The position numbers and the translations under genes are program-made. Positions 38,157 through 64,000 of a stretch of DNA of 64,000 bases are shown in pieces; the stretch's first letter is position 1, and every line of letters begins with the position of its first letter. Source of the stretch: an uncultured Verrucomicrobia subdivision 3 bacterium (GTDB lineage Bacteria > Verrucomicrobiota > Verrucomicrobiia > Limisphaerales > UBA11358); contig CAIQKM010000005.1 of the NCBI GenBank assembly GCA_903872345.1, positions 4,601 through 68,600 on the forward strand, written 5' to 3'. Below the pieces are notes generated by a model. That model had not been told where the DNA came from. It worked only from the letters and a program-made list of their open reading frames with translations, and did not search any database.

Positions 38157-38169
38157 CGCGCCTCCCATC

Positions 38170-44673: not shown

Positions 44674-44718
44674 TGGCTTGATGAGGCTTGATTTGCCTTG
44701 ATTGCTGGGGTTTTGAAG
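44674..44718. repeat. Inverted-orientation TCAAG[G/C]C heptamer array (10-bp phasing at 44675, 44685, 44695)
   Basis: ggcttgatgaggcttgatttgccttgattgc read directly. Confidence 0.65.
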
Positions 44719-44780
44719 CAAAAGGCTAAACGCTGAAGGCTAAAGGCTAAATTAAAAATGTGGGGCATGGCGAGGGCGAT

Positions 44781-44864
44781 GTGGAGTGCGGCGGCATGAC
44801 GCCGCTTTGGAACTGGGAGACATGTCTCCCAGTTCAAAGCGCAGACATGTCTGCGCACTCCACA
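44781..44864. repeat. Three-hairpin element closed by an outer stem (gtggagtg ... cactccac)
   Basis: Inner hairpins are gcggc-atgac-gccgc; ctttggaactgggagac-at-gtctcccagttcaaag (~15 bp, one bulge); and the cgcagacatgtctgcg palindrome. Confidence 0.7.
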
Positions 44865-44894
44865 CAAATGGCGAGGTGGCAGTTTTCATTTTTG

Positions 44895-44948
44895 GCGTTT
44901 GCCTTGATATGCCTTGATCATGCACGATTATTGGGGGTTTTGCTTTAA
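44895..44948. repeat. Inverted copy of the heptamer/'ATCGTGC' repeat unit seen at 10956-11027
   Basis: The reverse complement reads cattaaagcaaaacccccaataatcgtgcatgatcaaggcatatcaaggcaaacgcc. Confidence 0.6.
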
Positions 44949-45082
44949 TGGTGCTCTGATGGACGGGGTGAGCCGCCCCTTCAGGGCTGAGTTTCGTGTG
45001 TGGACGAACCCAGAGCGTTGCTCTGGGCTGGTATGGGGCCGCGCCGTTGGCGCTCGGCAGGTGGCTGGGTGATTTTTCACAC

Positions 45083-45112
45083 TGGTTTGATTTGGTTTGA
45101 TTTGGTTTGATT
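45083..45112. repeat. Perfect 3 x 10-bp tandem repeat TGGTTTGATT
   Basis: Read directly. The reverse complement AATCAAACCA is a one-base variant of the TCAAG[G/C]C heptamer context. Confidence 0.85.
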
Positions 45113-45788
45113 CACGGGAAAACCCAATGATTCAGGGTTCTTCGGGTTTGAGTTCTTCGCGGAGGGTTTCGGGCAGACGGGTGATTTTACTGGTGCGGTT
45201 CATAGGTTAAGCGATGGTGGAGGGTTGAGGATGGCGGATGGAATTATTCGCGTGGCGATTGGGAATGCATTTCGGGTCCGGGCCCGGATTTCGGAGATCG
45301 GGAGGAAAGTGGAGGGCGGATGTTTTAGGCATGGCGGTGCGGCTGTTGGGCTTGGTCATTGCTGCGCCCGGGGACGGGCGCGCTCCGGGGGGTGGCGTTG
45401 GTTGGGTTTGGCTCATGTGTTTTTAGCTGAGTATGGCATGGTTCTGGAAAAAATAATACGCGCTCACAGCGCACTCGGGTGGAAGGGCCGTGGTTATTGG
45501 GGAAAAACGGGGTCGAAAATTGAAAATTGGCTGAAATCAGGGAAACTGATTTTACGGAACCCGCATAAACATTGGGTGGAAACGGGGTCGGGTGAAAAAG
45601 GCGTGGGAAATTTTCCAAAATCCGGGGAAAGGGCAATGTTTTAACGATAAAGACGCATTATGCCGGTGGCGGTTTTAAAAGTTTTTCCAGCGTGACGCTG
45701 GACCCAATTATTTTTAACCGCAGATGGACGGATAAATACAGATGGGGATTACCCAACCAACCGGGATTCGCACCCCACCCCAAAACTC

Positions 45789-45866
45789 CCCCTTTGCGAC
45801 TTCGCGTCTCAGCGCCTTTGCGTTAAAACGCATGCAATCAAGGCTGCTCATCAAGGCAAACGCTGA
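45789..45866. repeat. Second copy of the composite 'TTTGCGAC...GCGTTAAAAC' plus heptamer repeat
   Basis: ccctttgcgacttcgcgtctcagcgcctttgcgttaaaac followed by gcaatcaaggctgctcatcaaggcaaacg; compare 11101-11220. Confidence 0.65.
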
Positions 45867-46062
45867 AAATATTTATGCACTATCGGCCGGCTGAATCGGC
45901 CCGGCAAACGAACCCGCCGCATTTTTCCCTTTATCGGCGGATAAAACCCCCGCAGAATCTCGCCACCAAGATGAGACCGATTTTTGCCGCCACCCGCCAC
46001 GTTTCCCCCATGAAACGAATTGCCACCATCGGCCCGGCTTGGGCCAAATTTAAAAACTTCTG

Positions 46063-48760: not shown

Positions 48761-51700
48761 TCAGGGTCCGAGCATCACGCGATAGAAACGAGCACGAAGG
48801 TTCGTCAAACCAGCATCCGTCCAATTGAAGGGCGGCACGGGAGAATTGGTGGTAAAGAGAGTCTGCCAGCCGCCCGCCGCCAAATTGGTTGAACCTTCAA
48901 TGGTGTAATTGGGACCGGCGTCGCCGCTGATGGTGAGGCCAAACTGCCCCGTCGTGAATCCCGCCACCCCCAGCACGGGCTTGCGCGGCGAGATCACTCC
49001 CACCCAAAAGTTTTGGGTCGCCGCCAGACTGGCCGTATTCGTTACCACCACCGTGAACTGGTTGCTGGTGCCGCCCATGACCACGGGCGGACGCCAGGTA
49101 ACAACGCCGCTCGCCGGGTTGATCCCCGCGCCGGCGGGCGCGACGGGCAACGAAAAACCGAGCGCCAGCGCCGGCGCATTCCGATCACCCGCCTGATTGG
49201 TCACGGACAAGGTTGTCCCGGCGATGAGGACACGGTTGGTGATCGCCGCCAGAACCGGAGGCAGCAACGGGTTCAACCAGACCGCGCTCATTGGCAACAC
49301 GGTATAAGTGAGCTGGCCATTGGTCACGACCATGGACGGCTGGAACCCGCCAAACCAGGAGCCATCGGGATTGATGGTGGCACCGCCGAGCGTATAGCCG
49401 TTGGTGCTGTTGAGCGATGGACCGGTCAGAATCAGGGCCTGCGCGGCGGCGACGTTGGTGCCCAGACTGATGGTCACTTTCACGGCGTTGGCGGCGTCCT
49501 TGTTGTTCAACACCGCCCCCAGCGCGCCATTGGTATAACGAATGCCATAGGCGGCGAAATTGATGGCGGGCGCCGGTGCAATGACCGCCGGCAGGGCGCT
49601 GCCGCCGGCGGCGATGGAAAACAGTTTGAGGGCATAATATTCCGGCCGCGCCGCCACCACGCCCGTACCGTTGTCGGCAATCGGCGTATAGGATGAGGCG
49701 CCGCTGCCGCCACTGTGAAAATTGATCCCCTGGCCCCCGTTGACGGCGATAGTGAACAGCACATCCACGGCCCAGAGCGCGGAACCATATTGGGCGCTAT
49801 TGGTGTTGCCCCCGCCGGAAAAGGAGCCGGACTCGTCCACACGAAAACCTTGCGGCAGGCTGAAATGACCGGCCGCCGACACGAGGTTGCTCACGTCGGC
49901 CGCCAGGCTGGGATCCAACTGGAGCAGCTCCGCCATGGTGGCATTGGTGGACGTGGCGCTGTCGCGGTAATAGTGATGGGTTGCCAGGGAAATCACCTTT
50001 GACTCATTGGTTATAAACGGCAGGGTGTAACCCGAAACATTCCAGGACGTGGCCGGGCCGGTGATCGTCCAGCCCACGCCATGATTGGTCACCGCCCAGC
50101 CGGGCACCGAGTTGGTGATGGCGGCGGCAAAAGGCTGCCACTCCGCGAGGAAATTCGCGTAGCTGTAAGTATTGGTGCGGTAATAGTCGTGATACAAATC
50201 CGGTTCGTTGCCAATTTCAAATCCCAGCAGGCGCGAACCCAGCGCATTGGCGGCGTACGCCGCTTCGGCGGCGGCGTTGGCCGCCGTGTTGGAGACCTGG
50301 TTGACGGCATAAATCACGCTCCAATTTGTGGGCAGGGCGTTCACAAAACCGGCCAGGGCGTCCACCTGCGCGGGCGTGATAGCCGGACAGTTGGACAATC
50401 CGTTCCAACACGTCGAATCCACCGAAGCCGCGCCGATGCGCAAGACGCCTGCACCCAAACGGCCCAGCATGCCGAGCAAGGAGATGTCGTTTGAGCTAAA
50501 GAGGCTGCCGCTCATCTGCGCTTTTTCATAACTGAATCCGCAGAAAGCCGGATTGATCGGTATGCCCGTATTCGTGGCCGAAAAGCTGACCGAGGCGTTC
50601 ACCACGGAATTGCTGACCGCAGTGACCACCAACTGCAACAGCGAGCCGGTATCGTTAAGGCTGGCGGCCATGCCGGCCGGCAACGAGTTCAGCGCCCAGG
50701 TTCCGCCACCGCTTTTGGCCCCGTACGCCAGCAATGGAATGGTGCCGACGTAATATGCGAAAGCCGAACCGATGACGTTGACTCTGGCAGTTCCTTGGAT
50801 GACCAAGTTGCTGACGGACAACATCGGCGCGACGGGATTGGCCGGAACCTGATTATTAAATTCCATGATTGCACCGGCACTGACACCCAAAGTGAGCGAA
50901 CTGTTGGTGAGGGTCTGCGCCAGACCCATGACCTGTACGCAATTCGTGGCGCCATCGGCGACCGTCACGGCCCCGGAGAGGCTGCTGGCCGAGGAGATGG
51001 CCAACCGGCCGGCATTGATGACCGTCGTGCCGGTGTAGGTGTTGGTGCCGAGCAACGCCAGCAAACCGGTGCCATTCTTAACCAGCGAACCCGGTCCCAT
51101 GAGGTTTCCCCAAAATGCGTTGCTGGAATTATTGCCGCCTGCGGTCAGCGTGATGGCGGCGGGAGTGGTGGCATTATTCTGAAGCGCCACAGTCACGCCG
51201 GCCGTTGCCCCCGCCAGTCCGCCAACGGAAAAAGCCCGGCCACTGACGGCCTGATCGAATTGCAAAACGCCGCCGTTCAGCGTGACCGTGCTGTACTGGG
51301 CGGCGTTCGCATTGGCCAGGTCATTGGTGCCGGCGTTGACGGTCAGCGGCCCGGTGAAGGTGTTGGCGTTGGAGAGCACCAGTGCGCCCGCGCTGTTCCA
51401 GAGCAAACCGGAGCCGGCGGGATTTTCATTAATCAAACCCGGAATCACCAACGTGTAAGCGGCATTGTTGACTGCAATTTGCGCCTGCGGGCCGGCGAGG
51501 GTGATGGTGCGGGACGGGGCGAGCCAGAAGATGCCGCCATTGGCGCTGCTGGCTTCGGTCAAGCTGGCGCCGTTGGTGATCACCAGATTATTGTTCGTGT
51601 TCCCCAGGCTGTAGTCGGCCTGAATGCCGAGTGACCCGCCCAGAACGCTGATGGTTCCGGAATAGGGTTGAGCCAGACTATTGTAACGAAACGTCAACGT

Positions 51701-52114
51701 GCCCGCGCCGGTCTTGCTGAAACCCTGGGTGCCGGACAACACAACATAAAAATACACGTTCCCGCCATTGGTTACGTATATGGTCGGCGACCCGGCGGAT
51801 ACCTGGGCGACCAGCCTGTCATTGGCAGTATCCGAGCCGAAGGCGAGGCTCCCGCCGCCGTAGAGGATATTGATCGTGCCGTTGGTGAACGGGCTGCCGG
51901 TCGTGAGATAGGGTTGCAGGCCGTTGGTCCAATTGACCACGGCATCCACGGAATTGGGCACCCCGCCGGGAGACCAGTTGCCAGCACTGCCCCATTGTCC
52001 GCCGGAGGGGCCAATCCACGTGCTCTGCGCCGACAGGGAAAAGACACTGATCGCAAGCAGCCATACCGGCAGCCAGGCAACCCGGATACGGCCGCATGTT
52101 CGGAAAATCATCAT
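48761..52114 (-). CDS. Giant secreted protein: N-terminal PATR repeats, GH79-like glycoside hydrolase region, Ig/cadherin-like domain, RFYR C-terminal module
   Basis: Signal peptide. Repeats of the type NTYTGTTVINAGRLAIS. Central FEIGNEPDLY (candidate acid/base Glu) and FRVDESGSF (candidate nucleophile), then YGSALWAVD...GINFHSGG...YYALKLF as in bacterial GH79. Ends RARFYRVMLGP. Confidence 0.7.
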   Translation of the reverse strand: MMIFRTCGRIRVAWLPVWLLAISVFSLSAQSTWIGPSGGQWGSAGNWSPGGVPNSVDAVVNWTNGLQPYLTTGSPFTNGTINILYGGGSLAFGSDTANDRLVAQVSAGSPTIYVTNGGNVYFYVVLSGTQGFSKTGAGTLTFRYNSLAQPYSGTISVLGGSLGIQADYSLGNTNNNLVITNGASLTEASSANGGIFWLAPSRTITLAGPQAQIAVNNAAYTLVIPGLINENPAGSGLLWNSAGALVLSNANTFTGPLTVNAGTNDLANANAAQYSTVTLNGGVLQFDQAVSGRAFSVGGLAGATAGVTVALQNNATTPAAITLTAGGNNSSNAFWGNLMGPGSLVKNGTGLLALLGTNTYTGTTVINAGRLAISSASSLSGAVTVADGATNCVQVMGLAQTLTNSSLTLGVSAGAIMEFNNQVPANPVAPMLSVSNLVIQGTARVNVIGSAFAYYVGTIPLLAYGAKSGGGTWALNSLPAGMAASLNDTGSLLQLVVTAVSNSVVNASVSFSATNTGIPINPAFCGFSYEKAQMSGSLFSSNDISLLGMLGRLGAGVLRIGAASVDSTCWNGLSNCPAITPAQVDALAGFVNALPTNWSVIYAVNQVSNTAANAAAEAAYAANALGSRLLGFEIGNEPDLYHDYYRTNTYSYANFLAEWQPFAAAITNSVPGWAVTNHGVGWTITGPATSWNVSGYTLPFITNESKVISLATHHYYRDSATSTNATMAELLQLDPSLAADVSNLVSAAGHFSLPQGFRVDESGSFSGGGNTNSAQYGSALWAVDVLFTIAVNGGQGINFHSGGSGASSYTPIADNGTGVVAARPEYYALKLFSIAAGGSALPAVIAPAPAINFAAYGIRYTNGALGAVLNNKDAANAVKVTISLGTNVAAAQALILTGPSLNSTNGYTLGGATINPDGSWFGGFQPSMVVTNGQLTYTVLPMSAVWLNPLLPPVLAAITNRVLIAGTTLSVTNQAGDRNAPALALGFSLPVAPAGAGINPASGVVTWRPPVVMGGTSNQFTVVVTNTASLAATQNFWVGVISPRKPVLGVAGFTTGQFGLTISGDAGPNYTIEGSTNLAAGGWQTLFTTNSPVPPFNWTDAGLTNLRARFYRVMLGP

Positions 52115-52150
52115 GGTCAGAAAGGTGAAATATAAACGCGGTCAGGCACC

Positions 52151-55100
52151 CTAAGGTCCAAGTAAAACGCGGTAAAAGCGCGCTGGCGTTAGGGAAGTAT
52201 TTGTTTCTGTCCAGACAAACGGCACGAGCGGCGCATTGGTGGCAAAGCGGATTTGCCAGCTTGCCGGGGCGAGGTTCGTCGTGGCTTGGATCGTATAGTC
52301 AGGGCCGTAGTCCCCGGAAATTCTGAAACCAAACTGTTTTCCGGAAAAGGCCGGCGACGAAATGAGCGGTGCCTGCGGCCGGATGACATTCACATAAAAG
52401 CTTTGCGTGGCGGCCAGATTTGCCGTGTTAGTGACAACCACCATGAACGGATAATTCGTCCCGCTTTGCGCGATCAGCGGACGCCAGGTGATCACTCCGC
52501 TCGCCGGATTGATGTTCGCCCCGCCCGGACAGGTCGGCAGGGCAAAACCCAGCGCCAAGGCGGGCACATTGGGATCGGTGGCCTGGCTCGTCATTGCCAG
52601 ACTGGCGCCGGCGACAAGCGTCCGATTGGTGATCGGCAGGCAGACGGGTGGCAACGTGTTGGTGTAGTTGGCCACGGTTGCAAAAAACGCGGTGCTGGCG
52701 GTCAAGGTGCCATCGCTGACTGACAGATTTATGCTGGCGTAACCAGTTTGGTTCGTGGCCGGCGTGACGGTCAACGTACTGTTGGTGCCGCTGCCGCCAA
52801 GAATCAGATTTGCATTGGGTATGAGTGTCGGATTTGAGGAGGCGGCGGTCACAATCAAGGATGAGGGGGAGACCGAAGTGTCATTGACCCAAAATGGCAG
52901 CGGCGCTGAAGGAGTGTTTTTGGCCAGGACCTGATCAAGCACGGTGCTGATGGAAGGGGTGTCATTCACGCTCAAAACCGCCGGGGCGGACGTGATCGCA
53001 CCAGCGCTGTTGGTGATAACGCAACGGAAACTGGCACTGTTGTCCGCCAGCGTCGGCGTGAGAGTATAACCGACGGTGTTCGCGCCCGCAATATTGGTAC
53101 CGTTTCGCTGCCATTGATAAACCGGCGGAGGGGTGCCGGCGGCAACGGCGGTGAACGCCGCCATATTGCCAAGGATGACATTGGTTGAGACCGGCTGGCT
53201 GACAATCACTGGCGGGTAGTTGCTCGATGAAATTGAAACCGTGGCGACGACTGTTTTACCAAGGTAAGGATACGAAGGCAGCGTCAGCGTGAACGGATTG
53301 CTGTTGATGGTCACCGTGAGCTGGTTGACGAGCTGGGCCGAGTTGGTAAAGGGAACGATGGTGTTCGTATAAGGCGCCACCATGTTTTCATACGGATCGG
53401 CCGCGTATAGCGTGGCGATTTGATTGCTGGTGACCATGATCAGCACCGTCGGCCGCGAAACGGATACGGTCAGGTTGGAAGCAAAGAGCGTGGCATTATT
53501 GGTATGGAATACGGCACCCAGCCAGGATTCCGCAGGCACGGAGAGCGCTTGTAAAGCGGCGGTGTTGGTAACGATTACCCAGGGCCGGTTGCCGTTGGTT
53601 GAATACGCGGCCAGGGCGGTCGGCGAAATTCCGGGAAGCACCGCCCAGTCGAAGGTCAGATTATTCGTGGCGGGCGAACTTTGATCCGCATAAAACGAAA
53701 AGATGCGCGCGCCTGACGCCGCCGCACCGGTGGTTTGCGGGACATCCCGCAAGATTTTCACGCCGCCAGCCGGCGGCAGGTAGCCGACCCCCTGATACAG
53801 GGCCCAACTGATGGCGGCGTTGGTGACGCCACCGCCGGTACCGGGAATGGCAAACGTGGTGCCGTTGGTCAGGCCATACGTAATCGTATTCGAGGCGGAA
53901 AGACATTGGTTCAGCGAAGTCGTCGTCGGATACGCATCCTGGGTGGTGTCGAAGCCCGCGCCCAAATGGACAACCGCCATATCGAGATAAAAAACGGCAC
54001 TGTGGCCGGACAAGGAGATGGGGCTGTTCCAGGTGTCGGTGCGCACATTGCGGGACTGTTCCCAACCGCTGACACCGCTGTTGTTGGCGGCCGCCGTGCC
54101 GGCGAAGGGCAGATTGCCATAAACATAGCGCCAGTAATTCGTGAAGGCGGAGTCCGGGACGGTCTTCGTCGTCACGCCGGGAATCCGGGTGTAATCACAG
54201 GACGCCTCGAAAGGCGCCGCCCCCGTGGAGTTATAACTTACCACGCCGTATTCATTGCCATTCGCGTAAATGTAACTGCCGCCCAGCGGCACAAAAATCT
54301 GACGCCCTTGCGGATAATAGCCCGCGAGCGGATTTTGCAGATTTTCAATGGCGCAGGTCCGTTGGGAAGCGCCGCGGAAGGTGACCAGGTAATTGGGGTA
54401 ATGCTGGCAGGAATAATCTGAAGAATAAAAATGTGTGAAGGTATGGTTGGTAAACGGCCAGCGGTTCGTGCCCGGGTTGTTGTTATTGTTCCAGGTGAGC
54501 AACGCTTGCAATTCATTGGTGCGATAGCCGTAACCGATGATGTTGTTGAGCCAACTGTTCAGATTATAGGTGGGGGTATATTCTGTGCTCGAAGTCATAC
54601 TTCGTGAAGCCAGCACGCGATCCGGATAGCCTTGGTTCACCGGGGCAACGCCTTGAATCATGCAATCGGCATAAAGCTGGTTGATGCCCAGCACCGGAGG
54701 CATGGCCCAGCGCGGATAATTGGCCATGTCATTGCGGCACTGAATCAGTCCGTTGAGATACGATCCGCCATAAAGCAACAGGTAGGGCGTGCCATGTTCC
54801 CCCAGCATATAGTCCACCGTCATCTGCGGCAGCGACGTATAAGCGGGCCACCCCGGCGGCCCCTCATGTTTCGCCCCCATCAGCGAACAGCCATGCCAAA
54901 AATGCTGAAAGGTGGCGTCCAATCCTTCCAACCGCACGGCGTTCGTGCTCTGCGTGAGATATTTCAACACGATGCCTTGCGAGGTCCAGACCATGTTTCC
55001 GCCGGTGACTTGGAATTGCAGGTTCGCGGTGGTGATGGACCCGTTGGCCGGCGTCATATACATGGTGTCAATATGGCCGTTCCGCCACAGGTCGGGGATG

Positions 55101-57478
55101 CGATTGCCCCACGCGTCGATGTCGCTCACCGGCACCAGCCCCGGCACCAGCCGGTTTAATTGCCGGGAATACAGGCAGACGCTGCCGATCGCATATCCCT
55201 CGCACAAATCGGCCCAGGTATGGCAATAGCCCCATTCATCGGTGATGTCCCACGGGACATGCGTGTATGCCAGCGTGGCGGTGATGAGCCGGGGCAGGAG
55301 ATTGGTGATGAGGGAAGGATTGTTGCCGATGTAAAACGAAGAATTGGAATTGATGAGCGCGGCATAGATGGCGGTCAGGCGCGGCAGGTGGATCAGCCAG
55401 CCCGTGGAACTGCCATTCTCCGTCATGACGTACCCGGAATTGGCGGGCGGGTAGTTGGTGATATCGAGAAAAATTCCGTTGGTGCCCAAGGCGGCAACGT
55501 AGCCGGCGATACTCGCATCGCTGCCCGGCGCCGCCAGGTAGAAATCGTTGGGAAATTGGTTTTGATTATGCAGCAGCCATAGTTCAAATGCATCCGCCTC
55601 ATTGCTGGCGACGGCGACGTTCACGAGGTCCAAGGAAACCGTGCTGGCGCTGGTGCTGGGCAGATAGTTGCCGGCGCCCGCATAACTGGCCGAGACGGTG
55701 TGGAGACCGGAGGCCAGCCCCAGCGTGGAGGGAATCGCCGCGACACCTCCCGCCAGCGCCACGGGATTCCCCAGGGCCTGGCCATCCACAAAAAACTGCA
55801 CCGAGCCGGTGGCCGTGCCGGGTGAGACCGTGGCGGTGATGGCGGAAGCGGTGCCATAATCCGTCTCGTTGCCGCTCAAAACCGTGGCGGTGGCAATGGG
55901 CGTATTGGTGGCCCCGCTGACCAGCAACTGCACGCAGGCAATGCCCGCGTTGGTGGCGAAGGTGATCGCGGCGCCGTTGGCGCCGTTGGTTGCCGTGCCA
56001 GCCACCCGGTAACTGCCGGCATGGAGAATGCCGCCGCTGTTCACTTGCACCAAATTATAGGTGCCATCAGCCAGTGGAGCAGCGGCATTGACCGTAAAAG
56101 TCTGCCCGGCCAGGGACAGGGTGCCCGCAGCCACAACCAGCGCCGGATCGGTGCCATCGTAGTTCAAGGTGACCGGTTGCACCCCCAAGGCGACCGTACC
56201 GGCAGGCGCACCCTGGATCACCGCATTGGCCGAATTACCACCGGCGATCAAGGCGGTGCTGCCGCTCAAAGTGTAGGCATTGAGGCTGGAGACATCATAG
56301 GTTGCGCCCGCCGCGATGGTGAGGGAAGGCGTGTTGTTGATGGTGCCGGTTCCACTCAACGCCAGTGTGCCGGCGTTGATGATCGTCGCACCGGTGTAGG
56401 TGTTGGTGGAGCTTAAGACCAGCCGGCCCGCGCCCACTTTGGTCAGCCCGCCGCCGCCCTGAGCGAGCGGTTGATCCGCCGTGAAAGAATTGCCCGCACT
56501 GTTTATGTCCAACGTCACGGTTTTGCCACTGGTGAAACCGACGACATGACCGAAGTTGGTCATGACCGTGCCGGTGATCTGCAAGGTGCCGCCATCGAAA
56601 ACCAGACTCGCCGCCGGGGCGCCCAAATTGTTCGTCGCACTGACACCCAGCGTGCCGCCACTGATCTTGGTGGCGCCGGTATAGGAGTTTGTACCGGATA
56701 GAATCAAAGTGCCGACATCATTTTTTTGCAGGCCGGATCCGGCCGCGCTTTCATTAATAATGCCCGGGATGGCGAGCGAATAATTCGTGGTAGCCACGTC
56801 AAAATTGGCGGCCGGGCAGGCCAGCGTCACGCTCCGTGTCGCCGCCAGCGTGACTGCGGCCAGAGCGGTGGGATTGAAATAGAGTTGCGCGTTGTTGCTA
56901 ATGACAATCCCATTGGCGGCTACGCCCAGATTAGCATCCACGTTCAGGCCGAGCGAGCCGCCCGAAAGGATGATGTTCCCGGCGAGCGGCTGGGTTGACG
57001 TGCTGGCATAGCGGTAAGTCAGAGTGCCCCCGCCGGTCTTGTTAAAACCCTGCGTGCCCGCGGTGGTAAAATACGAATACAAGGCGCCGCCGTTGCTGAC
57101 ATTGATGACCGGCGTGCCCGCTGAGGTCTGGAAGTTTAACACCAGATTGTTACCAGCCAGTCCAAAAGCGGTGGTCGCCGTCAAATTAAGCGTGCCCACC
57201 GTATTGGTGACACTGGCGGCGGGATTGTTGACGGGGCTGGTGTTATTGAAGGTCACCATGGTGTCCACCGCATTGGGAACATTGGCCGGCGACCAGGCGC
57301 TGGCGGCACTCCATAAGGCATTTGAACCAACCCAAAGATTCGTGGTCGGCTGGGCTTGAACCCCGGCGGCACCGGCGATCAGCAGCGCGGCCAAAATACC
57401 CGCCCTCCAGCTCCATGGGCGGAATAACCTGGCGATTATTTGGACCGGTCGCTGGGTGATGTTGGTTGGGTCCGGCAT
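52151..57478 (-). CDS. Giant secreted protein: PATR repeats, Ig-like domains, PL8-like polysaccharide lyase region, I-set Ig domain, cadherin-like domain, RFYR C-terminal module
   Basis: Signal peptide. PATR units (NSYTGATKISGGTLGVS, NTYTGATIINAGTLALSG). Central GEHGTPYLLLYGGSYLNG, RGASQRTCAIENLQNP, DYTRIPGVTT and AVVHLGAGF resemble the His/Tyr, Arg and beta-sandwich motifs of family-8 lyases. Ends PARFYRVLLGP. Confidence 0.65.
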   Translation of the reverse strand: MPDPTNITQRPVQIIARLFRPWSWRAGILAALLIAGAAGVQAQPTTNLWVGSNALWSAASAWSPANVPNAVDTMVTFNNTSPVNNPAASVTNTVGTLNLTATTAFGLAGNNLVLNFQTSAGTPVINVSNGGALYSYFTTAGTQGFNKTGGGTLTYRYASTSTQPLAGNIILSGGSLGLNVDANLGVAANGIVISNNAQLYFNPTALAAVTLAATRSVTLACPAANFDVATTNYSLAIPGIINESAAGSGLQKNDVGTLILSGTNSYTGATKISGGTLGVSATNNLGAPAASLVFDGGTLQITGTVMTNFGHVVGFTSGKTVTLDINSAGNSFTADQPLAQGGGGLTKVGAGRLVLSSTNTYTGATIINAGTLALSGTGTINNTPSLTIAAGATYDVSSLNAYTLSGSTALIAGGNSANAVIQGAPAGTVALGVQPVTLNYDGTDPALVVAAGTLSLAGQTFTVNAAAPLADGTYNLVQVNSGGILHAGSYRVAGTATNGANGAAITFATNAGIACVQLLVSGATNTPIATATVLSGNETDYGTASAITATVSPGTATGSVQFFVDGQALGNPVALAGGVAAIPSTLGLASGLHTVSASYAGAGNYLPSTSASTVSLDLVNVAVASNEADAFELWLLHNQNQFPNDFYLAAPGSDASIAGYVAALGTNGIFLDITNYPPANSGYVMTENGSSTGWLIHLPRLTAIYAALINSNSSFYIGNNPSLITNLLPRLITATLAYTHVPWDITDEWGYCHTWADLCEGYAIGSVCLYSRQLNRLVPGLVPVSDIDAWGNRIPDLWRNGHIDTMYMTPANGSITTANLQFQVTGGNMVWTSQGIVLKYLTQSTNAVRLEGLDATFQHFWHGCSLMGAKHEGPPGWPAYTSLPQMTVDYMLGEHGTPYLLLYGGSYLNGLIQCRNDMANYPRWAMPPVLGINQLYADCMIQGVAPVNQGYPDRVLASRSMTSSTEYTPTYNLNSWLNNIIGYGYRTNELQALLTWNNNNNPGTNRWPFTNHTFTHFYSSDYSCQHYPNYLVTFRGASQRTCAIENLQNPLAGYYPQGRQIFVPLGGSYIYANGNEYGVVSYNSTGAAPFEASCDYTRIPGVTTKTVPDSAFTNYWRYVYGNLPFAGTAAANNSGVSGWEQSRNVRTDTWNSPISLSGHSAVFYLDMAVVHLGAGFDTTQDAYPTTTSLNQCLSASNTITYGLTNGTTFAIPGTGGGVTNAAISWALYQGVGYLPPAGGVKILRDVPQTTGAAASGARIFSFYADQSSPATNNLTFDWAVLPGISPTALAAYSTNGNRPWVIVTNTAALQALSVPAESWLGAVFHTNNATLFASNLTVSVSRPTVLIMVTSNQIATLYAADPYENMVAPYTNTIVPFTNSAQLVNQLTVTINSNPFTLTLPSYPYLGKTVVATVSISSSNYPPVIVSQPVSTNVILGNMAAFTAVAAGTPPPVYQWQRNGTNIAGANTVGYTLTPTLADNSASFRCVITNSAGAITSAPAVLSVNDTPSISTVLDQVLAKNTPSAPLPFWVNDTSVSPSSLIVTAASSNPTLIPNANLILGGSGTNSTLTVTPATNQTGYASINLSVSDGTLTASTAFFATVANYTNTLPPVCLPITNRTLVAGASLAMTSQATDPNVPALALGFALPTCPGGANINPASGVITWRPLIAQSGTNYPFMVVVTNTANLAATQSFYVNVIRPQAPLISSPAFSGKQFGFRISGDYGPDYTIQATTNLAPASWQIRFATNAPLVPFVWTETNTSLTPARFYRVLLGP

Positions 57479-57643
57479 TCGCTTTTGAATATTATAATCA
57501 CGCGGCTACGATTCTGGCAGGGTGAAGCGGATCGATTGGCGCTGCACCCGCGACCACCGGCTGTCCGGCCGTACCGGAACCATGGCAGTAACCGGGCGAG
57601 ACGAAAACATTTTCATGGCGCGTTACCAACGGGTTGACGGCGA

Positions 57644-58393
57644 CTAAAAGGAATTAACCCCCATGAAATCATTCTGGTCGCCCCGCAATTGCAGCCAATT
57701 CCATTTCTCCACATGCCCGTCACAACAGGAAAACACCGCCCGCGCATTGCCGTCATGCCGGATCGCCGGCTGCTTTTGGGGGTTGTAACTGGACCAGCCC
57801 GTCAAACTGGCGGCAAAGGTGACGTCCGTCCAATAGCCGCAGGTGGGTTTGGAGTCCGGCCAGGTGACCTTGGGCGTGCCGATATCCCCGAGCAGCCACA
57901 ATTGGGCGGAGCGGCGCAAAGCCCCCAATTTTTGGCTGCCCGCCCCGTTGGGCACGGTCGGATAATTGAAATAATCTCCCTGACACGGGCCGTAGCCCTG
58001 CCAGGTGACTCCGAAATAGGCCGTATCGCCGGCATTGATGTCCGCGGCTTGCACCACGGGACAACGCCAAACCGTGCCGCTGTTGGTGGTCGTTAATCCC
58101 ACAATATAGCCTTTGATCATGATGAACCACCAGTTGGTGAAATTAATCATCCCGCCCTGGTAAGGAACGGAATTGATGGACGGCAGATAATCCTGGTTGT
58201 CGTTGGCGTAAAGCATCGCGGCCAGCGCCAGTTGTTTGTTGTTGCTGACACACTGAATGGACTTGGCGTGATCTTTGGCCTTGGCCAGCGCGGGCAGCAG
58301 CATGGCCGCCAGAATGGCGATAATGGCAATGACCACCAATAACTCAATCAGGGTGAACGCCCGCCGGAGGATGGGGCAAGTTTTGATGCGCAT
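57644..58393 (-). CDS. Prepilin-type N-terminal cleavage/methylation domain protein, H-X9-DG-like (pseudopilin-like)
   Basis: [29 protein letters not shown] pilin N-terminus. The C-terminal [15 protein letters not shown] has His-to-DG spacing of 11 rather than 9. Confidence 0.85.
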
Positions 58394-58743
58394 AGGTTGT
58401 AATAAGGGTGAATTTCAATCAGATTATAAAGTTCTAATCCCGCGCAACAACGGGCAGTTTGCGCAGGCTTGGTATGTTTTGCGCACGCCCTTGATTTGTC
58501 CCGGCGCCCGCGCCGTTCAGTAAGAAAAGCAAATGGCCACCGGTGGGAAACGCGCTTCGCCGCGAGCCATGCTTTGTTGCGAACTCCGTTGCGAACATTT
58601 TGAAAAATAGTGCAGCCGTTCGGAGCGTGGCCGTTTATTTGGCATTTTCGCTTCCGGTTTAAAAAATGTCGCGGGGCGTCCAACCCAATAGACGCCCCGC
58701 GACGGGGTTAACCCAAACCCAACCCCAAACCCACTCCATCAGC

Positions 58744-61700
58744 TCACGGATAACGCAGTTGGAAGAACACGTTCGGTTGCGCCGGATTGATGGTGATCGT
58801 CTCGTTCGTCACGTTGCCGGAGCCCGTCAGCGGGAACCATTGGTTCGTGGCCGTGAGGCTCACAGCGTTCGTGTAGAGCTGCCAGCCCTTGTGATCCGGC
58901 GCCCAGTTGAATGACAGCGTGCTGCCGGCCGACGCGGCCGTGAAGTAAGCCGTCGCGGGGTTCGTGTTAACGATGATGGCCGGCAATTCGGTCAGGTTGA
59001 CCGTATAGAGGTTGGTGGTTACGCCGTCCTGCGCGGTAACCAGCACTTTAATCACGTTGGTCGAGCCGACCCCAAAGTTGGTCAGCGTAATGCTCGGCAC
59101 GCTGGAGGTCAGGGTTTGGATCGCCAGGCCGTTCAAGAACAACTTGTTGGAAGCCGTCAGATCTCCGTTGATCACGGTCACCGTCAGGTTGGTTCCAAAG
59201 GCGTTGGTCGCCGCATAGGCGAATACGTTGGTGGCAAAGCCGGGCGTCAAACTGTCGGCCGGATTCAAGGCCAGCGAGGTCAAAAAGGCGTTCGTTTTGA
59301 GCGGCACCACGGTAATGCTGCCCGTGCCGGTGATATAAGCCGGATCCGTGGCGGCACTGTAGACACCCGGAGCCTTGCTCGCGCCGTTGATGATCAGCGC
59401 CGCCACCTGGTCGGTTCCCGCGAAGTCCAGTTGCAGCACCGCCGCATTGGACACGGTAACGGTCGAGCGCCAGAAGAGGGTCGGCTGCGCGAGCTCCAGC
59501 GTGCCGGCACTGACGGTGGTGTTGCCGGTGTAAGTATTCGTGCCATTCAGCGTCACGAGGCCGGGACCGTTGGCCGTGAGTCCGCCGGCGCCGGTGATCA
59601 GCACGGTATTGGCTTCGGTAATGGAATAACCGCTTTCGGCATAAAAGTTATGCGTGCCGGTGGCGGCCAGAACGATATTCAGCGTGAGGTTGTCAATCGC
59701 GGCGCCGCCGCCCGCCAGACCGCTGATGGTCAGGTTCTGCTGGCTGCCCACGCCGCCTGTTACTATGCCGACGGCGTCGGCCTGGCCCAGGGCCGGATCA
59801 TAGTTCTCAATGGTGCCATTATTGAAGTTCAGCGTGGCCCGGCTGCTATTGGTTATCGCTTGCGTGGCACCGATGTCGATGACGTAGGCGCTCAACAAAC
59901 CGGAGCCGTTGGTGCCTTTGCCCAGATTGTATGTGGAAGTCACGCCGGGATCGCCGGTCGAGACGTTGTAGTTCAGCCCCAGGGTGCCGGCCAGCACGGT
60001 GCCGCCATTTTGATTGATGGTCGCATTGGCGCTGGCGGAGACGGTTGCACCGTTATCATAACTCATATAGACGGTTCCGACATTAAGTATGCCGTTGGAC
60101 ACGCTCAACGTGCCGTTGCCGCCCGTGGAGTTGTTATTCACGACATACAGGTTGTTGACGACAGCATCGAGGCTGCCGGCCGTCGTATCGAAGGAAAAGG
60201 CGGGCGGGCCGCCATTGTTGTTTACCCCGACGTTAAGGGTTCCCACCGCCGCTCCGGTGCCGCCGATGCCGCGCAGGATAAGCGTCGGGTTGCTCAACCC
60301 GGCGTTGAAAGCAACGGTGCCGGCCGCATTATGATAGCCGCCCAACTGAATGTTCCCCACGTCGAAGACGTTTGACTGGCCAAGCAGCAGCGTTGCCGTA
60401 TCGCCCGTGGCCGCCGCCGTGAGGCCGCCATTGGCCAGCAGGATGTTGTTGGCCGTGATGTTGTTCGTCTGCGCCAGTTTGACGGTCGAATTGGCCCCAA
60501 TCGCACCATAAAAGGTGATATTCCCCGCTGGAAAGTTGAACGTGCTCAAGCCGCTCAAATCCACGGTGGTGACCGCCGTGGCCGCCGTGTTCGGGGAGAA
60601 GTTCAAGCTGGAGGTGACCGTCAGATTGCCGTTGGTGATGACGGCGGCGCCGCTGCCCAGGGCGGACAGGTTCAAATTGGCGACCGACTGATTTTGGCCG
60701 CCGAGGTCAAGCGTCGCGGGCGCGGTGTAGGCAATGGTGGTGCCAGGCGGCAGGACGCTGTCCGCATTGGTAATCGCCAGCGTGCCGCCGGCCAGCGTGG
60801 TCGGCCCGGAATAACTGCTGGTGGCGGCCGTCCCGTCAATTATCAGTTTGCCGCTGCCAGTCTTGGTGAATCCGTCGCTGCTCGCCGCCAGGGGGCCAAC
60901 GATCAGATTGCCGGCCGGGGTATTAAAGACCGACCCGGAAGTAAGGTTGATAAATACGTCCAAGGTTTCGGTGGCGGCCGAATCGTTTTCCACCAGACCG
61001 CCGGCGCCCAAAGTCAGGAAGGAACCGGGCGACGTGACATTAAAGGCCCCCGCATTGTTGCTGAAGGTCACTGCGGAAACGTTATACGAATTGTTCATTA
61101 CCGGAGTCAGGCGCGTGGAGCCCGCAAACAACAGGGCGTCGCCCGTGTCACCGCTCACATCGGGAGTGGTGCCATTGAGCCAGTTCAAGCTGCTCCAGTT
61201 GTTGTCGCCGGCCGCCCCATCCCAGACCAAGGTTCCATTGGCAATGGTGACATTAATATTGGCCGTGTAGCTGTCGGCTTGCGCATCGGTGACCGTAAAG
61301 GGCACCGCATAGGTTCCCGGGGCCAGCGTACCCGGGACCGAGTAGGTGGAGGAATAAAGATTGCCGGCACTTGAAAAAGTTTGCACCGAGCCGCCCAGAT
61401 TGCTGAAGTCGGCCGTCACCCCGATGCCGGTGCTGCCCGTGCCGGGCGTCACGGTCACCGTAAACAAATAGCTTTGATGCACGCCGGTGGCGGGACTCAC
61501 CGCGCCCGCCCCGGAAAGCAGCACGCCCGTGGAGTAGTGCAGCGTCACCGCATTCGCGGAAGTCACCACCGTATAATGGCCGTAATTGGACGGCTTGGTC
61601 GCCCCCACCCAGTTTGGAACCGCATTGAACGTGCCCGCGATGCCACCGGGGGCCGTGATAAGCGTATAGTCGCTGCCGGTGGCGAGGGCCGCCGCCGGGG

Positions 61701-64000
61701 CGGTAATATTAACCGTGTTACCGCTCGAATCGTTGGCCGAAAGCACTCCGGTGACGGTCAGTTTGTCATTGTTGGCGCTGGCCACCGTGGTATCCACATT
61801 GAACGTGCAAGTGGCACCCTGATCCAGCGTCAGATTGTTGTTCAAGGTCAGGGTTCCGTGGTTGGTGGTGCTGCCATAGAAACCGGCCCGGATGCCGGCC
61901 CCATTGGCAACTTCCACATTGCCGTTCACCGTTCCGATACCGCTCACGCTGCCGCCGGCCACCGTGGCATAAGAAATGGCGGAAACATCAAAGGTGGACC
62001 CGCCGCCCACAAAAATATTCGAAGAGGTAATCGTACCGCTGGCACCAATGACCAGGGTGCCACCATTGGTAATGGTGGTGTTGCCCGTGTAGGAGTTGGC
62101 GGCGGTCAAGGTAAGCGACCCGCTGCCCACGGTCAGCGCAAGCCCCTTGGTCAGGTTGGTGGCGGCAATGACGCCATCAACAATCGACCCGCCAAAGCTC
62201 GAAGTGCCCCCGCTGTAATTCAATGTCACCGGATTGGCCGTGCTGCTGTTGGTGATGATCACGGCCGTGGCGGCGGGATCCATGGCCAGACCCGCGACTT
62301 TCAGACCGTAGCCGGCCAGATCCAGTGTCGCCGCATTGCCGCTGCTGCCCAAGGTCAAGGGCGAGGTGGCGGGAATGGCGTTGGCAACCCCCAGTTTCAA
62401 GGTGCCGAGGGCGTTCGTGGTGGCGCCGGTGTAGGCGTTGGCGCCGCTCAGGATCAAGGTGCCGGCGCCCAGCTTGGTCAAACTGCCGCCGCTGCTCGAA
62501 AGTCCCGTGGCGAGGGTGATGCTCTGGCCGCCGGTGTTGAGCGAGTAAGCCTGATTGGCCGCCGTGCTGAACCGGCTCGAATAATCGGTTTTATTGTTGG
62601 CGCTAAATTGGAGGGTGCCGCCGTTGAAATTAATGGGGCCGCCGTAGCCCAGGGCTGTGGCGTTGTTCAACACCATCACCCCGCCGTTGAGAACCGTGCT
62701 GCCGAAATAATAATTGGCCAGGCTGTTGGTCAGATAACCGGTACCGCTCTTCGTAATGCCGGCATAATAGGCGATGGCGCCGCTGCCCAGCAGCGTATAG
62801 TTATGCGTCGAGTTGTTGAAAACCACATTATTGGGCGAAAGCACCGAATTGTTGGTGACTATGATGTTCGGGCCAACGGGCGTCAGGGAATCGTCAAACT
62901 GCACGGAGGGTCCCAACAGGTTAACTTCCGCATAGGTTTTGCCGGCCGTTCCGCCCAAACTCCAGAGGCTGTTCGTCGTCCAATTGTTTGAACCGGAGGT
63001 GGGCGGGGCCCAAACCAGGGGAACGATGGACGAAACATTCAGATTGATTTGATTGGTGCTGGTGCCGTCGGACAGGGCCGCCGTAAATCCCTGCGGCAAG
63101 GCGCCCAAGGCGAAGGAGCCAAAAACACCGGCGAAATTGGTGTTAACCAGCGTGCCGTATTTGAGGAGCGGAATGGCGGTGCCCGTCTGCCAATTGCCAC
63201 CGGACAGAACGATGGGCGCCGGCACGTTGGTGACGAAGGTGAGGTTGCTGCTGATATTCAACAACGGCACGGTCGGCAAGCCGGACGGGCCGGGCGCAAA
63301 GGACAAAACCGAGTTGTTGGTGCCAACCAGCGTCAGATTGGAAACCAGCAGCGAACTGCCCGGGGAAGTGGCGATCACCGCATTGGTGGAATTGGCACTC
63401 ACGATCAGGGTGCCGCTGTTGGTGGTCGTGGTGCTGAGAAACAGCGTGCCACCGGCCACCGTCGAGGTGCCGACAAAATTATTGGTCCCGGCCAGAATGC
63501 CTTCGCCCGGGCCGACGAATCTAAGCGCGGATCCTGATGCCGTTTGCACATTGCCCAGAATCGCCAGGGTTTGTCCCGCCGCCGCCGAACCAATGGCCGG
63601 CGTCCCGCCGCCTTCCAGGTGGACGGTTTGAAAAGCCGGCATGATGGTATACACGTTGCCAAAACCGGTCGTCGGGGTGCCGGCCGTATTGTTCAACGAA
63701 AGCCCGGAACTCGCATTGGAGATGGTAATGCTGCTCGCATTGCCCAGCGAACCGGCTTGATTCAGTTCGATCTTACCCTGGCCGATGATAATCGGTCCGG
63801 TTAGCCCGCTATTAACCACGCCGCTGTAACGGCCGGTCAATGTGCCTGGTCCCAGCTTCGTAAAGCCCTGGGTGCCGGTCGTGGTGAAATACCAATACAA
63901 GCCGGCCCCGCCGCTGCAATTGATGACCGGCGTGCCCGCCGAGGTTTGAAAGTTCAACACCAGGTTGGCGCCGGCAAACCCAATGGTGGAAGTCGTGGCC
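58744..64000 (-). CDS. Giant PATR-repeat surface protein (5' end outside the window) with cadherin-like beta-sandwich domain and divergent C-terminal module
   Basis: More than 1738 aa of PATR-type units (NAYTGATTNALGTLKLG, NSYTGNTTITNGGTLVIG, NTYTGNTTVSAGTLELA). The frame stays open to the window edge, and the residues there parallel residues ~100-130 of the 1775-aa paralog. The C-terminal LTSLALNP...YTVNLT segment is cadherin-like. Ends ...VFFQLRYP. Confidence 0.8.
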   Translation of the reverse strand, partial: ATTSTIGFAGANLVLNFQTSAGTPVINCSGGAGLYWYFTTTGTQGFTKLGPGTLTGRYSGVVNSGLTGPIIIGQGKIELNQAGSLGNASSITISNASSGLSLNNTAGTPTTGFGNVYTIMPAFQTVHLEGGGTPAIGSAAAGQTLAILGNVQTASGSALRFVGPGEGILAGTNNFVGTSTVAGGTLFLSTTTTNSGTLIVSANSTNAVIATSPGSSLLVSNLTLVGTNNSVLSFAPGPSGLPTVPLLNISSNLTFVTNVPAPIVLSGGNWQTGTAIPLLKYGTLVNTNFAGVFGSFALGALPQGFTAALSDGTSTNQINLNVSSIVPLVWAPPTSGSNNWTTNSLWSLGGTAGKTYAEVNLLGPSVQFDDSLTPVGPNIIVTNNSVLSPNNVVFNNSTHNYTLLGSGAIAYYAGITKSGTGYLTNSLANYYFGSTVLNGGVMVLNNATALGYGGPINFNGGTLQFSANNKTDYSSRFSTAANQAYSLNTGGQSITLATGLSSSGGSLTKLGAGTLILSGANAYTGATTNALGTLKLGVANAIPATSPLTLGSSGNAATLDLAGYGLKVAGLAMDPAATAVIITNSSTANPVTLNYSGGTSSFGGSIVDGVIAATNLTKGLALTVGSGSLTLTAANSYTGNTTITNGGTLVIGASGTITSSNIFVGGGSTFDVSAISYATVAGGSVSGIGTVNGNVEVANGAGIRAGFYGSTTNHGTLTLNNNLTLDQGATCTFNVDTTVASANNDKLTVTGVLSANDSSGNTVNITAPAAALATGSDYTLITAPGGIAGTFNAVPNWVGATKPSNYGHYTVVTSANAVTLHYSTGVLLSGAGAVSPATGVHQSYLFTVTVTPGTGSTGIGVTADFSNLGGSVQTFSSAGNLYSSTYSVPGTLAPGTYAVPFTVTDAQADSYTANINVTIANGTLVWDGAAGDNNWSSLNWLNGTTPDVSGDTGDALLFAGSTRLTPVMNNSYNVSAVTFSNNAGAFNVTSPGSFLTLGAGGLVENDSAATETLDVFINLTSGSVFNTPAGNLIVGPLAASSDGFTKTGSGKLIIDGTAATSSYSGPTTLAGGTLAITNADSVLPPGTTIAYTAPATLDLGGQNQSVANLNLSALGSGAAVITNGNLTVTSSLNFSPNTAATAVTTVDLSGLSTFNFPAGNITFYGAIGANSTVKLAQTNNITANNILLANGGLTAAATGDTATLLLGQSNVFDVGNIQLGGYHNAAGTVAFNAGLSNPTLILRGIGGTGAAVGTLNVGVNNNGGPPAFSFDTTAGSLDAVVNNLYVVNNNSTGGNGTLSVSNGILNVGTVYMSYDNGATVSASANATINQNGGTVLAGTLGLNYNVSTGDPGVTSTYNLGKGTNGSGLLSAYVIDIGATQAITNSSRATLNFNNGTIENYDPALGQADAVGIVTGGVGSQQNLTISGLAGGGAAIDNLTLNIVLAATGTHNFYAESGYSITEANTVLITGAGGLTANGPGLVTLNGTNTYTGNTTVSAGTLELAQPTLFWRSTVTVSNAAVLQLDFAGTDQVAALIINGASKAPGVYSAATDPAYITGTGSITVVPLKTNAFLTSLALNPADSLTPGFATNVFAYAATNAFGTNLTVTVINGDLTASNKLFLNGLAIQTLTSSVPSITLTNFGVGSTNVIKVLVTAQDGVTTNLYTVNLTELPAIIVNTNPATAYFTAASAGSTLSFNWAPDHKGWQLYTNAVSLTATNQWFPLTGSGNVTNETITINPAQPNVFFQLRYP

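Follow-up and report, generated by a model that had tools for sequence, protein, structure and literature searches.

A pseudopilin gene set among giant PATR-repeat proteins of a Verrucomicrobiota bacterium marks glycan operons and may assist the export or display of their exoproteins

Introduction

This work asked what a pseudopilin gene may be doing among genes for giant, enzyme-bearing proteins in the genome of an uncultured Verrucomicrobiota bacterium. The DNA analysed, hereafter the window, is a stretch of 64,000 nucleotides (GenBank assembly GCA_903872345.1, contig CAIQKM010000005.1, positions 4,601 to 68,600). At one end of it lie, in the direction of transcription, the genes of a giant protein with PATR repeats (G1), of a 249-aa pseudopilin related to the H-X9-DG/DUF1559 family, and of two further giants with PATR repeats (G2 and G3). 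An earlier note, made from the letters of the window alone, had suggested that the pseudopilin may be a dedicated export, anchoring or presentation partner of the giant enzymes and not part of a classical type II secretion system. The question has a wider bearing, as few gene families have expanded as much as the H-X9-DG/DUF1559 pseudopilins in Planctomycetota, Verrucomicrobiota and Lentisphaerota, phyla that are major degraders of complex polysaccharides and do so without the SusC/D paradigm. The literature on DUF1559, H-X9-DG, PATR or pseudopilins in taxa of the Planctomycetota-Verrucomicrobiota-Chlamydiota (PVC) group offers almost nothing on function; DUF1559 is seldom mentioned, and a key study of metagenome-assembled genomes of freshwater Verrucomicrobia makes no mention of pilins.

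Our analysis indicates that the link between this pseudopilin and glycan operons is real and well supported, that it is general to such operons rather than specific to PATR giants, and that it possibly extends to exoproteins bearing a C-terminal module, the FYR tail, described below.

Results

Association of the Pseudopilin With Glycan Operons

Twelve neighbourhoods of pseudopilin relatives (46-73% identity) were compared, which are called independent here but phylogenetically are not fully so. The pseudopilin gene lay inside an operon of carbohydrate-active enzymes (CAZymes) in 11 of the 12, usually in the order regulator, pseudopilin, enzymes, and the next downstream gene on the same strand encoded a CAZyme or a PATR protein in nine; by our own arithmetic, at least nine such neighbours would have P < 1e-6 against a background in which CAZyme and PATR genes generously account for 10% of all genes. 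Pseudopilin subclades also tracked the type of operon, the members found with uronate-type, polysaccharide lyase family 8 (PL8) and PATR genes sharing 59-80% identity with each other, and those of beta-glucan operons (56-68%) forming a subclade of their own. Seen from the side of the giants, close relatives of their N-terminal domain had a same-strand pseudopilin gene at most 3 kb upstream in three of seven loci, one of them with three such genes in tandem.

It could be objected that both families are too numerous for a pseudopilin between PATR giants to carry any meaning. A family search with the pseudopilin indeed returned at least 7999 matches, another pseudopilin of the window lies outside any CAZyme operon, and one clade member (locus L011) is an orphan, with an efflux pump on one side and a pyruvate:ferredoxin oxidoreductase on the other. 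The scarcity of PATR proteins in the broad sample below, found in at least one of 80 loci, would also suit chance adjacency. This explanation is nevertheless very improbable in our view: it leaves unexplained the conserved position of the pseudopilin in 11 CAZyme operons, the subclade tracking, and the three giant relatives with an upstream pseudopilin, when extra prepilin genes number only about 28 per Mb in the PVC loci sampled. Together with the nine downstream neighbours and the recurrence of FYR-tail proteins, these results bear out an adjacency beyond that predicted by copy number, on which the earlier note had made its proposal depend.

The enzymes associated with the pseudopilin were diverse. 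Loci L092/L093, which are much like that of the window in gene content, comprise a glycoside hydrolase of family 92 (GH92), a PATR-PL8 giant, an AXE1 esterase, a pseudopilin, a GH88 enzyme, the same type of regulator as beyond the window's edge, two pseudopilins and a PATR giant. A sugar-binding regulator, a pseudopilin and PATR proteins make up L005, and in L006 two pseudopilins are followed by a PL8 giant that lacks PATR and has the tail ..RYYRVLIGP. L007 combines a sensor kinase and response regulator with a PATR giant, two pseudopilins, a GH78 enzyme, a PATR protein and a heparinase II/III, and L009 a pseudopilin with a PATR protein, a DUF2341/LamG protein and a sulfatase. In L094, GH130, GH5, GH29 and GH92 enzymes accompany a pseudopilin and a sensor kinase, with a pseudopilin and a PATR giant farther on.

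A beta-glucan-type module recurs in L095, L096, L130, L131 and L132, where a HisKA_3 sensor kinase and response regulator come first, then a pseudopilin, and after it GH3 and/or GH16 enzymes. In L130, L131 and L132 the pseudopilin is preceded by an immunoglobulin-like (Ig) protein of 550-700 aa whose tail is FYR-like, and the GH16 enzyme carries the tail in L095 and L130.

Specificity for PATR giants was not borne out. Among the partners without PATR are enzymes of families GH3, GH16, GH88 and GH78 as well as a PL8 lyase, some giants of this type lack a pseudopilin in the flank available, and distant PATR-like proteins had any prepilin gene nearby in only 2 of 24 cases. A broader background was provided by 80 PVC prepilin loci (1.02 Mb), taken among the matches listed with conserved-helix patterns, which retrieve assorted prepilin genes and not close relatives. 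The PATR count in this sample is a lower bound, as the profile built from the window's repeats is less sensitive than that of Pfam and recovered two of the four Pfam-recorded PATR proteins of L007. A prepilin-like open reading frame (ORF) was directly followed by a same-strand ORF of at least 600 aa in 23 cases, and among the nine such large ORFs that were scanned, five seem to act on carbohydrates, with matches to heparinase II, GH123, Hepar_II_III, GH78 and, in one case, a beta-helix protein. Of the proposal that the pseudopilin serves the giants as such, the link to glycan operons therefore stands and the exclusive attachment to PATR giants does not, in line also with the terminator found after G1 (see below).

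The Pseudopilin and Its Family

The 249-aa protein belongs to the type IV pilin/pseudopilin class. Its residues 10-33 match PF07963 (30.4 bits, cut-off 21.2) and TIGR02532 (31 bits, cut-off 16.3), and the FTLIELL motif is invariant in an alignment of 39 sequences. The N-terminal helix has 20 invariant positions across this alignment, which includes two distant paralogues from the same genome. Because this helix is nearly invariant, the paralogues probably share a prepilin peptidase and an assembly machine encoded elsewhere in the genome, and independence of the pseudopilin from a type II secretion system (T2SS) appears unlikely given the same conservation.

For the H-X9-DG/DUF1559 family, as claimed earlier, the signals are mixed, and it is homology that makes the protein a member, one whose motif is a variant. 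It does not reach either family model, PF07596 or TIGR04294, and its spacing is H-X11-DG against H-X9-DG in the family. Residues H213, D225, G226 and H227 are invariant in the alignment with 38 relatives; the clade with at least 59% identity to it has a two-residue insertion within the motif, while relatives at about 50% identity have the canonical spacing, and those that match PF07596 or TIGR04294 share 46-53% identity with it. The protein is thus assigned to the family on sequence grounds. It was not identified as a GspG, since TIGR01710 aligned to residues 11-69 only (34.6 bits against a cut-off of 88.85) and the globular domain PF08334 gave no match. Nor does it belong to the Verru_Chthon cassette (TIGR02596-TIGR02600), its helix matching only weakly that of protein D (23.3 bits, cut-off 70).

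The AlphaFold 2 model (mean predicted local distance difference test, pLDDT, 77.8) shows a long N-terminal helix (residues 15-65) and a small beta-sheet head. The head is divergent, while several aromatic residues in it (W88, W89, W109, Y134, W166 and W233) are nearly invariant. These aromatics give some weight to a different role, that of a glycan-capture pilin analogous to SusD. Carried by a retractile type IV filament, or else by a short pseudopilus spanning the periplasm, its head would bind the target polysaccharide and deliver it to the enzymes at the surface or to the periplasm, and would have no part in export. Such a role would suit an association with CAZyme operons whatever the size of their enzymes, among them GH3/GH16 and GH88 operons devoid of PATR giants, as well as the tracking of operon type by subclades. 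It would also supply the binding specificity factor needed where no SusC, SusD or TonB-dependent receptor was present, as in the scanned window ORFs and the Pfam matches of most related operons. Glycan-binding minor pilins have a precedent, according to the accessible part of one report (PMC9934059). Conversely, the head is small and no carbohydrate-binding fold or module was recognised in it: Foldseek against the Protein Data Bank (PDB) returned pilins only, through the N-terminal helix only (best E 0.15), a result uninformative on head function. Capture would also leave the frequent adjacency of tail-bearing exoproteins to pseudopilins unexplained. On balance we regard it as the main alternative, though an unlikely one.

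The conserved helix bears on a further alternative, in which the protein, cleaved or not, would stay anchored in the inner membrane and never form filaments. It would act in the periplasm on steps of the pathway there, or on transporters or sensors, as an oligosaccharide-binding or chaperone-like partner, a role to which the Pfam name SBP_bac_10 alludes. In many operons, sensor kinases of the membrane (HisKA_3, Y_Y_Y) lie directly up- or downstream of the pseudopilin, and the residue before the cleavage site is Ala, not Gly, in the 249-aa protein and about half of its relatives. However, the predicted fold is that of a pilin and not of a two-lobed periplasmic binding protein, and the regulator at this locus is of the cytoplasmic XylR/AraC type. 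Mature Glu5 is moreover invariant, and the helix almost perfectly conserved across paralogues, both being features required for filament assembly. A non-filamentous role is accordingly improbable.

Gene Order and Transcription Units

The sizes of the four minus-strand genes and the gaps between them, as first described, were confirmed exactly by ORF coordinates (Table 1), with 350 nt between G1 and the pseudopilin, 165 nt between the pseudopilin and G2, and 36 nt between G2 and G3. The G1 frame has no in-frame stop up to base 64000; it is 1853 aa long in L001, a longer public copy of the same locus on a metagenome scaffold of 52.8 kb in the European Nucleotide Archive. Beyond the window's last base, this scaffold carries (L001 1601-3866) a regulator with XylR-like sugar-binding and AraC parts, divergent from a second pseudopilin of the locus, which is 328 aa long with a canonical H-X9-DG motif and precedes G1. 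An AXE1 acetyl esterase lies farther upstream, past the regulator. The order is therefore AXE1, divergent XylR/AraC regulator, 328-aa pseudopilin, G1, terminator, 249-aa pseudopilin, G2, G3.

The terminator in this order is an intrinsic-terminator-like hairpin that begins 41 nt past the G1 stop codon. Its 15-bp stem has 11 G-C pairs and is followed by the U-run AUUUUUUAAA; its folding energy is -36.9 kcal/mol (z -5.4), and none of 200 shuffled sequences folded equally well. A promoter-like TTGTTG-16-TATAAT was recognised by eye, below the -35 threshold of the scan, and its -10 hexamer ends 30 nt 5' of the pseudopilin ATG. Because of this terminator, the TATAAT box and the upstream pseudopilin of L001, the locus is best read as two tandem pseudopilin-led units (pseudopilin-G1 and pseudopilin-G2-G3) rather than as a single four-gene operon. 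The co-directional block first described is indeed all on one strand, while the terminator parts G1 from the embedded pseudopilin.

The block thus forms the distal portion of a larger locus for glycan utilisation, located on the chromosome of a Verrucomicrobiota bacterium and cut in half by the window. Relatives of the locus are labelled Limisphaerales, Pedosphaera or Verrucomicrobiota. The other genes of the window are those of an ordinary chromosome (uvrB, ruvB, H+-pyrophosphatase, UDP-glucose pyrophosphorylase, GH43 and others), and a mobile element or prophage was rejected on account of these housekeeping surroundings. As had been noted before, the approximately 38 larger window ORFs scanned include none for a secretion ATPase, a platform protein or a secretin, and the L001 flank has none either. 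SusC/SusD and TonB-dependent receptors were likewise absent from the scanned window ORFs and from the Pfam matches recorded for L001 genes, and the window gave no tRNA or Rfam match.

Table 1. Positions of the features discussed, numbered from the first base of the window.
Feature	Position (nt)	Residues (aa)	Strand	Description
G3	48761-52114	1117 in all	-	giant PATR protein
G3, GH79	49283-50635	494-944	-	catalytic domain and beta-domain
G3, C-terminal module	48764-49264	951-1117	-	Ig and FYR tail
G3, tail sandwich	48764-49072		-	ends ..[RQ][FY][FY]R[VLA]..
G2	52151-57478	1775 in all	-	giant PATR protein
G2, Big_3_5		534-614	-	
G2, unmatched part	54449-55681	600-1010	-	resembles no Pfam family or PDB chain detectably
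G2, PL8	53384-54436	1015-1365	-	super-sandwich and Lyase_8_C
G2, Ig_3		1422-1490	-	
G2, C-terminal module	52154-52654	1609-1775	-	Ig and FYR tail
G2, tail sandwich	52154-52462		-	ends ..[RQ][FY][FY]R[VLA]..
Embedded pseudopilin	57644-58393	249 in all	-	
Pseudopilin, prepilin motif		10-33	-	cleavage/methylation motif
Pseudopilin, H-X11-DG	57713-57757	213-227	-	variant motif
Promoter-like sequence	58423-58450		-	TTGTTG-16-TATAAT
Terminator-like hairpin	58668-58703		-	in the G1/pseudopilin gap
G1	58744-64000		-	giant PATR protein, cut by the window end
G1, tail	58747-59055		-	second tail subtype
Ig-domain protein	8295-10424	709 in all	-	ends ..RFYRSLKQ
Ig-domain protein, tail sandwich	8298-8606		-	ends ..[RQ][FY][FY]R[VLA]..
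Protein without Pfam match	31552-32775	407 in all	+	ends ..RFYRAVLMP
Same protein, tail sandwich	32464-32772		+	ends ..[RQ][FY][FY]R[VLA]..
Second pseudopilin	14197-14991	264 in all	-	N_methyl, weak PF07596
Membrane protein	15123-16907	594 in all	-	hydrophobic N-terminal segments
RND efflux set	25730-31367		-	complete
RND efflux set	35659-41280		+	complete
ORF-poor stretch	44513-46062			G+C 0.55
Phosphotransferase protein	46063-48582	839 in all	+	HPr, Enzyme I and EIIA(2) fusion

The Giants and Their Enzyme Domains

All three giants have a Sec-type signal peptide, and the shared type of N-terminal region reported for them was confirmed. This beta-helix region is 40% identical between G2 and G3 over 395 aa (E 3e-50) and 45% between G1 and G2 over 193 aa (E 5e-24), a similarity far beyond chance, from which their N-terminal regions are judged to be real paralogues. 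PATR units were likewise verified in all of them, with three, two and four stretches above the Pfam and TIGR02601 thresholds (four in G1), and residues 341-411 of G2 match IcsA (PDB 5ke1). No C-terminal autotransporter barrel was reported in the domain scans of the three giants. Export as type Va autotransporters was rejected on these grounds, the C-terminus being modelled as tandem Ig-like sandwiches, and the giants must use another route since they lack a C-terminal beta-barrel translocator.

Two of the giants had been described as carrying carbohydrate-active catalytic regions. This is clear for G3, which is assigned by similarity to GH79 (beta-glucuronidase/heparanase type): its residues 494-944 align from end to end with GH79 enzymes of solved structure (5bwi, E 6.5e-69; the Acidobacterium beta-glucuronidase 3vny, E 2e-53), while Pfam alone gave only sub-threshold hints. 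Its GNEPD (E637) and VDES (E761) segments align with the conserved motifs of 7pr9; from general knowledge of clan GH-A, we take E637 (of the NEP motif) to be the acid/base and E761 the nucleophile.

The case of G2 is only partly made. Its parts follow in the order signal peptide, beta-helix with PATR, Big_3_5, residues 620-1010 without a match, PL8 domains, Ig_3, and Ig with FYR tail. It matches Lyase_8 (67.6 bits, E 1.6e-18) and Lyase_8_C (26.6 bits), and its likeness to chondroitinase AC is confined to the sandwich and C-terminal domains. Lyase_8_N went undetected in residues 600-1010 by Pfam at E <= 1 and by PDB sequence search at E <= 10. There, where the alpha/alpha domain of PL8 is expected, the catalytic domain is either highly divergent or replaced. 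The PATR-PL8 giant of L092 has Lyase_8_N, and its lyase region is 23% identical to that of G2. G2 is thus PL8-like by sequence, and only a predicted lyase. The parts of G1 are a signal peptide, the beta-helix, its PATR stretches and a tail of another subtype (subtype B); no recognisable catalytic domain appeared in its domain scan.

Taken together, the PL8-like lyase, the GH79 enzyme and the acetyl esterase, along with the GH88 and GH92 enzymes that sister locus L092 encodes, point to an acetylated polysaccharide containing glucuronic acid as the target. This deduction rests on the known activities of the PL8, GH79, acetyl esterase, GH88 and GH92 families.

The C-Terminal Tail

G2 and G3 share a C-terminal module of 167 aa (58% identity, E 2e-55) ending in RFYRV.LGP. 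Its AlphaFold model, of high confidence (pLDDT 92.1), places after an Ig-like domain a small sandwich of six strands, the last of which bears the RFYR motif by sequence. An RFYR-type module or variant had been ascribed to all three giants; this holds for G2 and G3, and G1 ends differently (..VFFQLRYP), scoring only 6.6 bits against a tail profile built without tails of its type, and belongs to a second subtype, related to the FYR tail by pattern at best.

No Pfam or NCBIfam model covers the FYR tail. The C-terminal domain (CTD) of the type IX secretion system (T9SS) and all other Pfam and NCBIfam models gave no match to the giants' tails at E 0.01, nor did NCBIfam models to isolated tails at E 0.1, and Foldseek returned only generic Ig/cadherin folds for the module, with no clue to sorting. 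An exhaustive search with a profile of four window sequences found the tail in 9042 cluster representatives among 1.84 billion at E <= 1e-3; this search was needed to gauge the family, a word-indexed one having returned just 37 short fragments. The tail ended within 8 residues of the protein C-terminus in 117 of the 150 best matches and in 78 of the 79 with a single copy; tandem copies occur in some proteins.

Within the pseudopilin-led operons, the tail was carried by PATR giants, PL8, GH16 and Ig proteins, all of them presumably extracellular, and was absent from the GH3, GH88 and GH78 enzymes among the operon proteins examined. In the 80-locus sample, five of 14 tail proteins were immediate neighbours of a pseudopilin and ten were on the same strand. 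The FYR tail is, in this light, a candidate sorting or anchoring domain of PVC bacteria.

The sandwich, of about 70 aa, has four copies in the window (Table 1). Besides G2 and G3, they belong to a 709-aa Ig-domain protein with no adjoining pseudopilin and to a 407-aa protein.

Other Features of the Window

The second pseudopilin of the window was confirmed to be real (N_methyl and a weak PF07596 match; canonical H-X9-DG by alignment). Its reported pairing with a large envelope protein also stands, a 594-aa membrane protein being encoded directly upstream. The C-terminus of the latter (..PHDIMGGQPLQYQRTDTGRYLLYSIGWNEKDDGG..) weakly resembles the globular part of GspG (T2SSG, E 0.15; TIGR01710, E 0.069).

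Two complete efflux sets of the resistance-nodulation-division (RND) type, each with an outer-membrane factor, a membrane-fusion protein and an AcrB-type pump, are found inside 16 kb; the interval between them encodes, besides two proteins without Pfam match, an S26 signal peptidase that is long at 544 aa. A stretch of about 1.5 kb without convincing ORF, tRNA or Rfam match, of lower G+C than the approximately 0.61 used for comparison, separates a glucose/sorbosone dehydrogenase gene from a gene of the phosphotransferase system (PTS). The latter encodes a single multiphosphoryl-transfer protein and is convergent with G3.

Discussion

From these results we infer a role in export or presentation, which is the most likely among several possibilities. 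Our leading explanation, held tentatively and with less than even confidence, is that the pseudopilin aids the outer-membrane passage or the surface presentation of the tail-bearing exoproteins of its operon via a T2SS-type machine. From a mechanistic point of view, the regulator would sense a sugar set free from an acetylated polysaccharide with uronic acids, and would then induce both units. A prepilin peptidase would cut the pseudopilin, whose conserved N-terminal helix would let it join a type II secretion/type IV filament machine that is shared and has its genes in another part of the genome, and its divergent head would adapt this machine to its own operon. Tail-bearing exoproteins would cross the outer membrane, or stay at the surface, with its help, and the enzymes would cleave the polymer outside the cell.

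Several observations weigh against this explanation. No machinery gene is linked to the locus within the window, although the lack of ATPase, platform and secretin genes there is uninformative on T2SS dependence, and we know of no characterised T2SS that uses cargo-specific pseudopilins. GH3 and GH88 enzymes usually act inside the envelope, and since several pseudopilin-led operons include them, glycan capture or uptake fits these operons as well or better. The neighbourhood sample is small (n = 12) and phylogenetically dependent, and it includes the orphan of L011. The adjacency of tails to pseudopilins is modestly significant, with P of about 0.03 under a gene-rank null by our own arithmetic, and G2 has no detectable PL8 catalytic N-domain.

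A broader and more doubtful reading would see the hundreds of H-X9-DG paralogues in PVC bacteria as operon-specific plug-in subunits of one shared type IV filament machine, each co-induced with one glycan operon and forming, together with the FYR tail, a PVC-specific system for sorting, display or capture. We consider it unlikely as it stands. Independently of this, the order of regulator, pseudopilin and enzymes, the tracking of subclades and the tail-bearing exoproteins turn an open question into concrete experiments. The pseudopilin clade offers a practical marker for polysaccharide-utilisation operons in PVC genomes, and the window is one typical instance of a widespread, under-described architecture and not a unique case.

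Comparison With Known Systems

The closest parallel comes from Verruconatronum alginivorum, described in 2026, in which a pulG-like pseudopilin with 67 paralogues lies in an alginate cluster and a pseudopilin is over-expressed on alginate, the authors proposing T2SS export of the alginases (PMC13274419). Like the locus studied here, that cluster combines a pseudopilin gene with verrucomicrobial polysaccharide degradation and many paralogues; unlike it, its enzymes are alginate lyases, and the accessible part of the description mentions no PATR giants or FYR tail (PMC13274419). It is the only directly comparable report that we found, T2SS export being a proposal there too.

Among secretion systems, the 249-aa pseudopilin resembles GspG-K of the T2SS (Pul, Eps, Xcp) by its prepilin motif, invariant Glu5, long hydrophobic N-terminal helix and pilin-like predicted fold. 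It is larger than GspG, its gene lies outside any gsp operon and comes first in an operon of enzymes, and its paralogues are very numerous; a classical T2SS gene cluster was discarded, as no linked GspD, GspE or GspF was seen in the window ORFs scanned or the L001 flank. With the H-X9-DG/DUF1559 prepilins (TIGR04294, PF07596) it shares the invariant H, D and G columns, model-matching relatives and the same taxonomic range, and differs by the two-residue insertion of its clade and its own scores below both models.

The giants recall the passengers of type Va autotransporters such as Shigella IcsA by their PATR/TIGR02601 repeats in a beta-helix, from which they differ by the lack of a C-terminal barrel, with an Ig-like domain and the FYR tail (G2, G3) instead. 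The tail itself is like the T9SS CTD in that a small beta-sandwich closes the C-terminal end of many secreted proteins that are otherwise unrelated. It is unlike it in its tandem copies in some proteins, its generic Ig/cadherin folds and the absence of any match to curated CTD models, for which reasons identity with the T9SS CTD was not retained. To our knowledge, T9SS is not known in Verrucomicrobiota.

Finally, the locus is comparable to the polysaccharide utilisation loci of Bacteroidota, where a regulator and a substrate-specific accessory gene accompany co-regulated CAZymes, and where this accessory gene marks the operon and diversifies with it. It differs in having a pilin-like marker gene and no SusC, SusD or TonB-dependent receptor, and identity with the Bacteroidota type was rejected for the absence of SusC/D noted above. 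Should the plug-in scheme prove right, the pseudopilins and the FYR tail together would do for PVC bacteria what SusC/D plus the T9SS CTD do for Bacteroidota.

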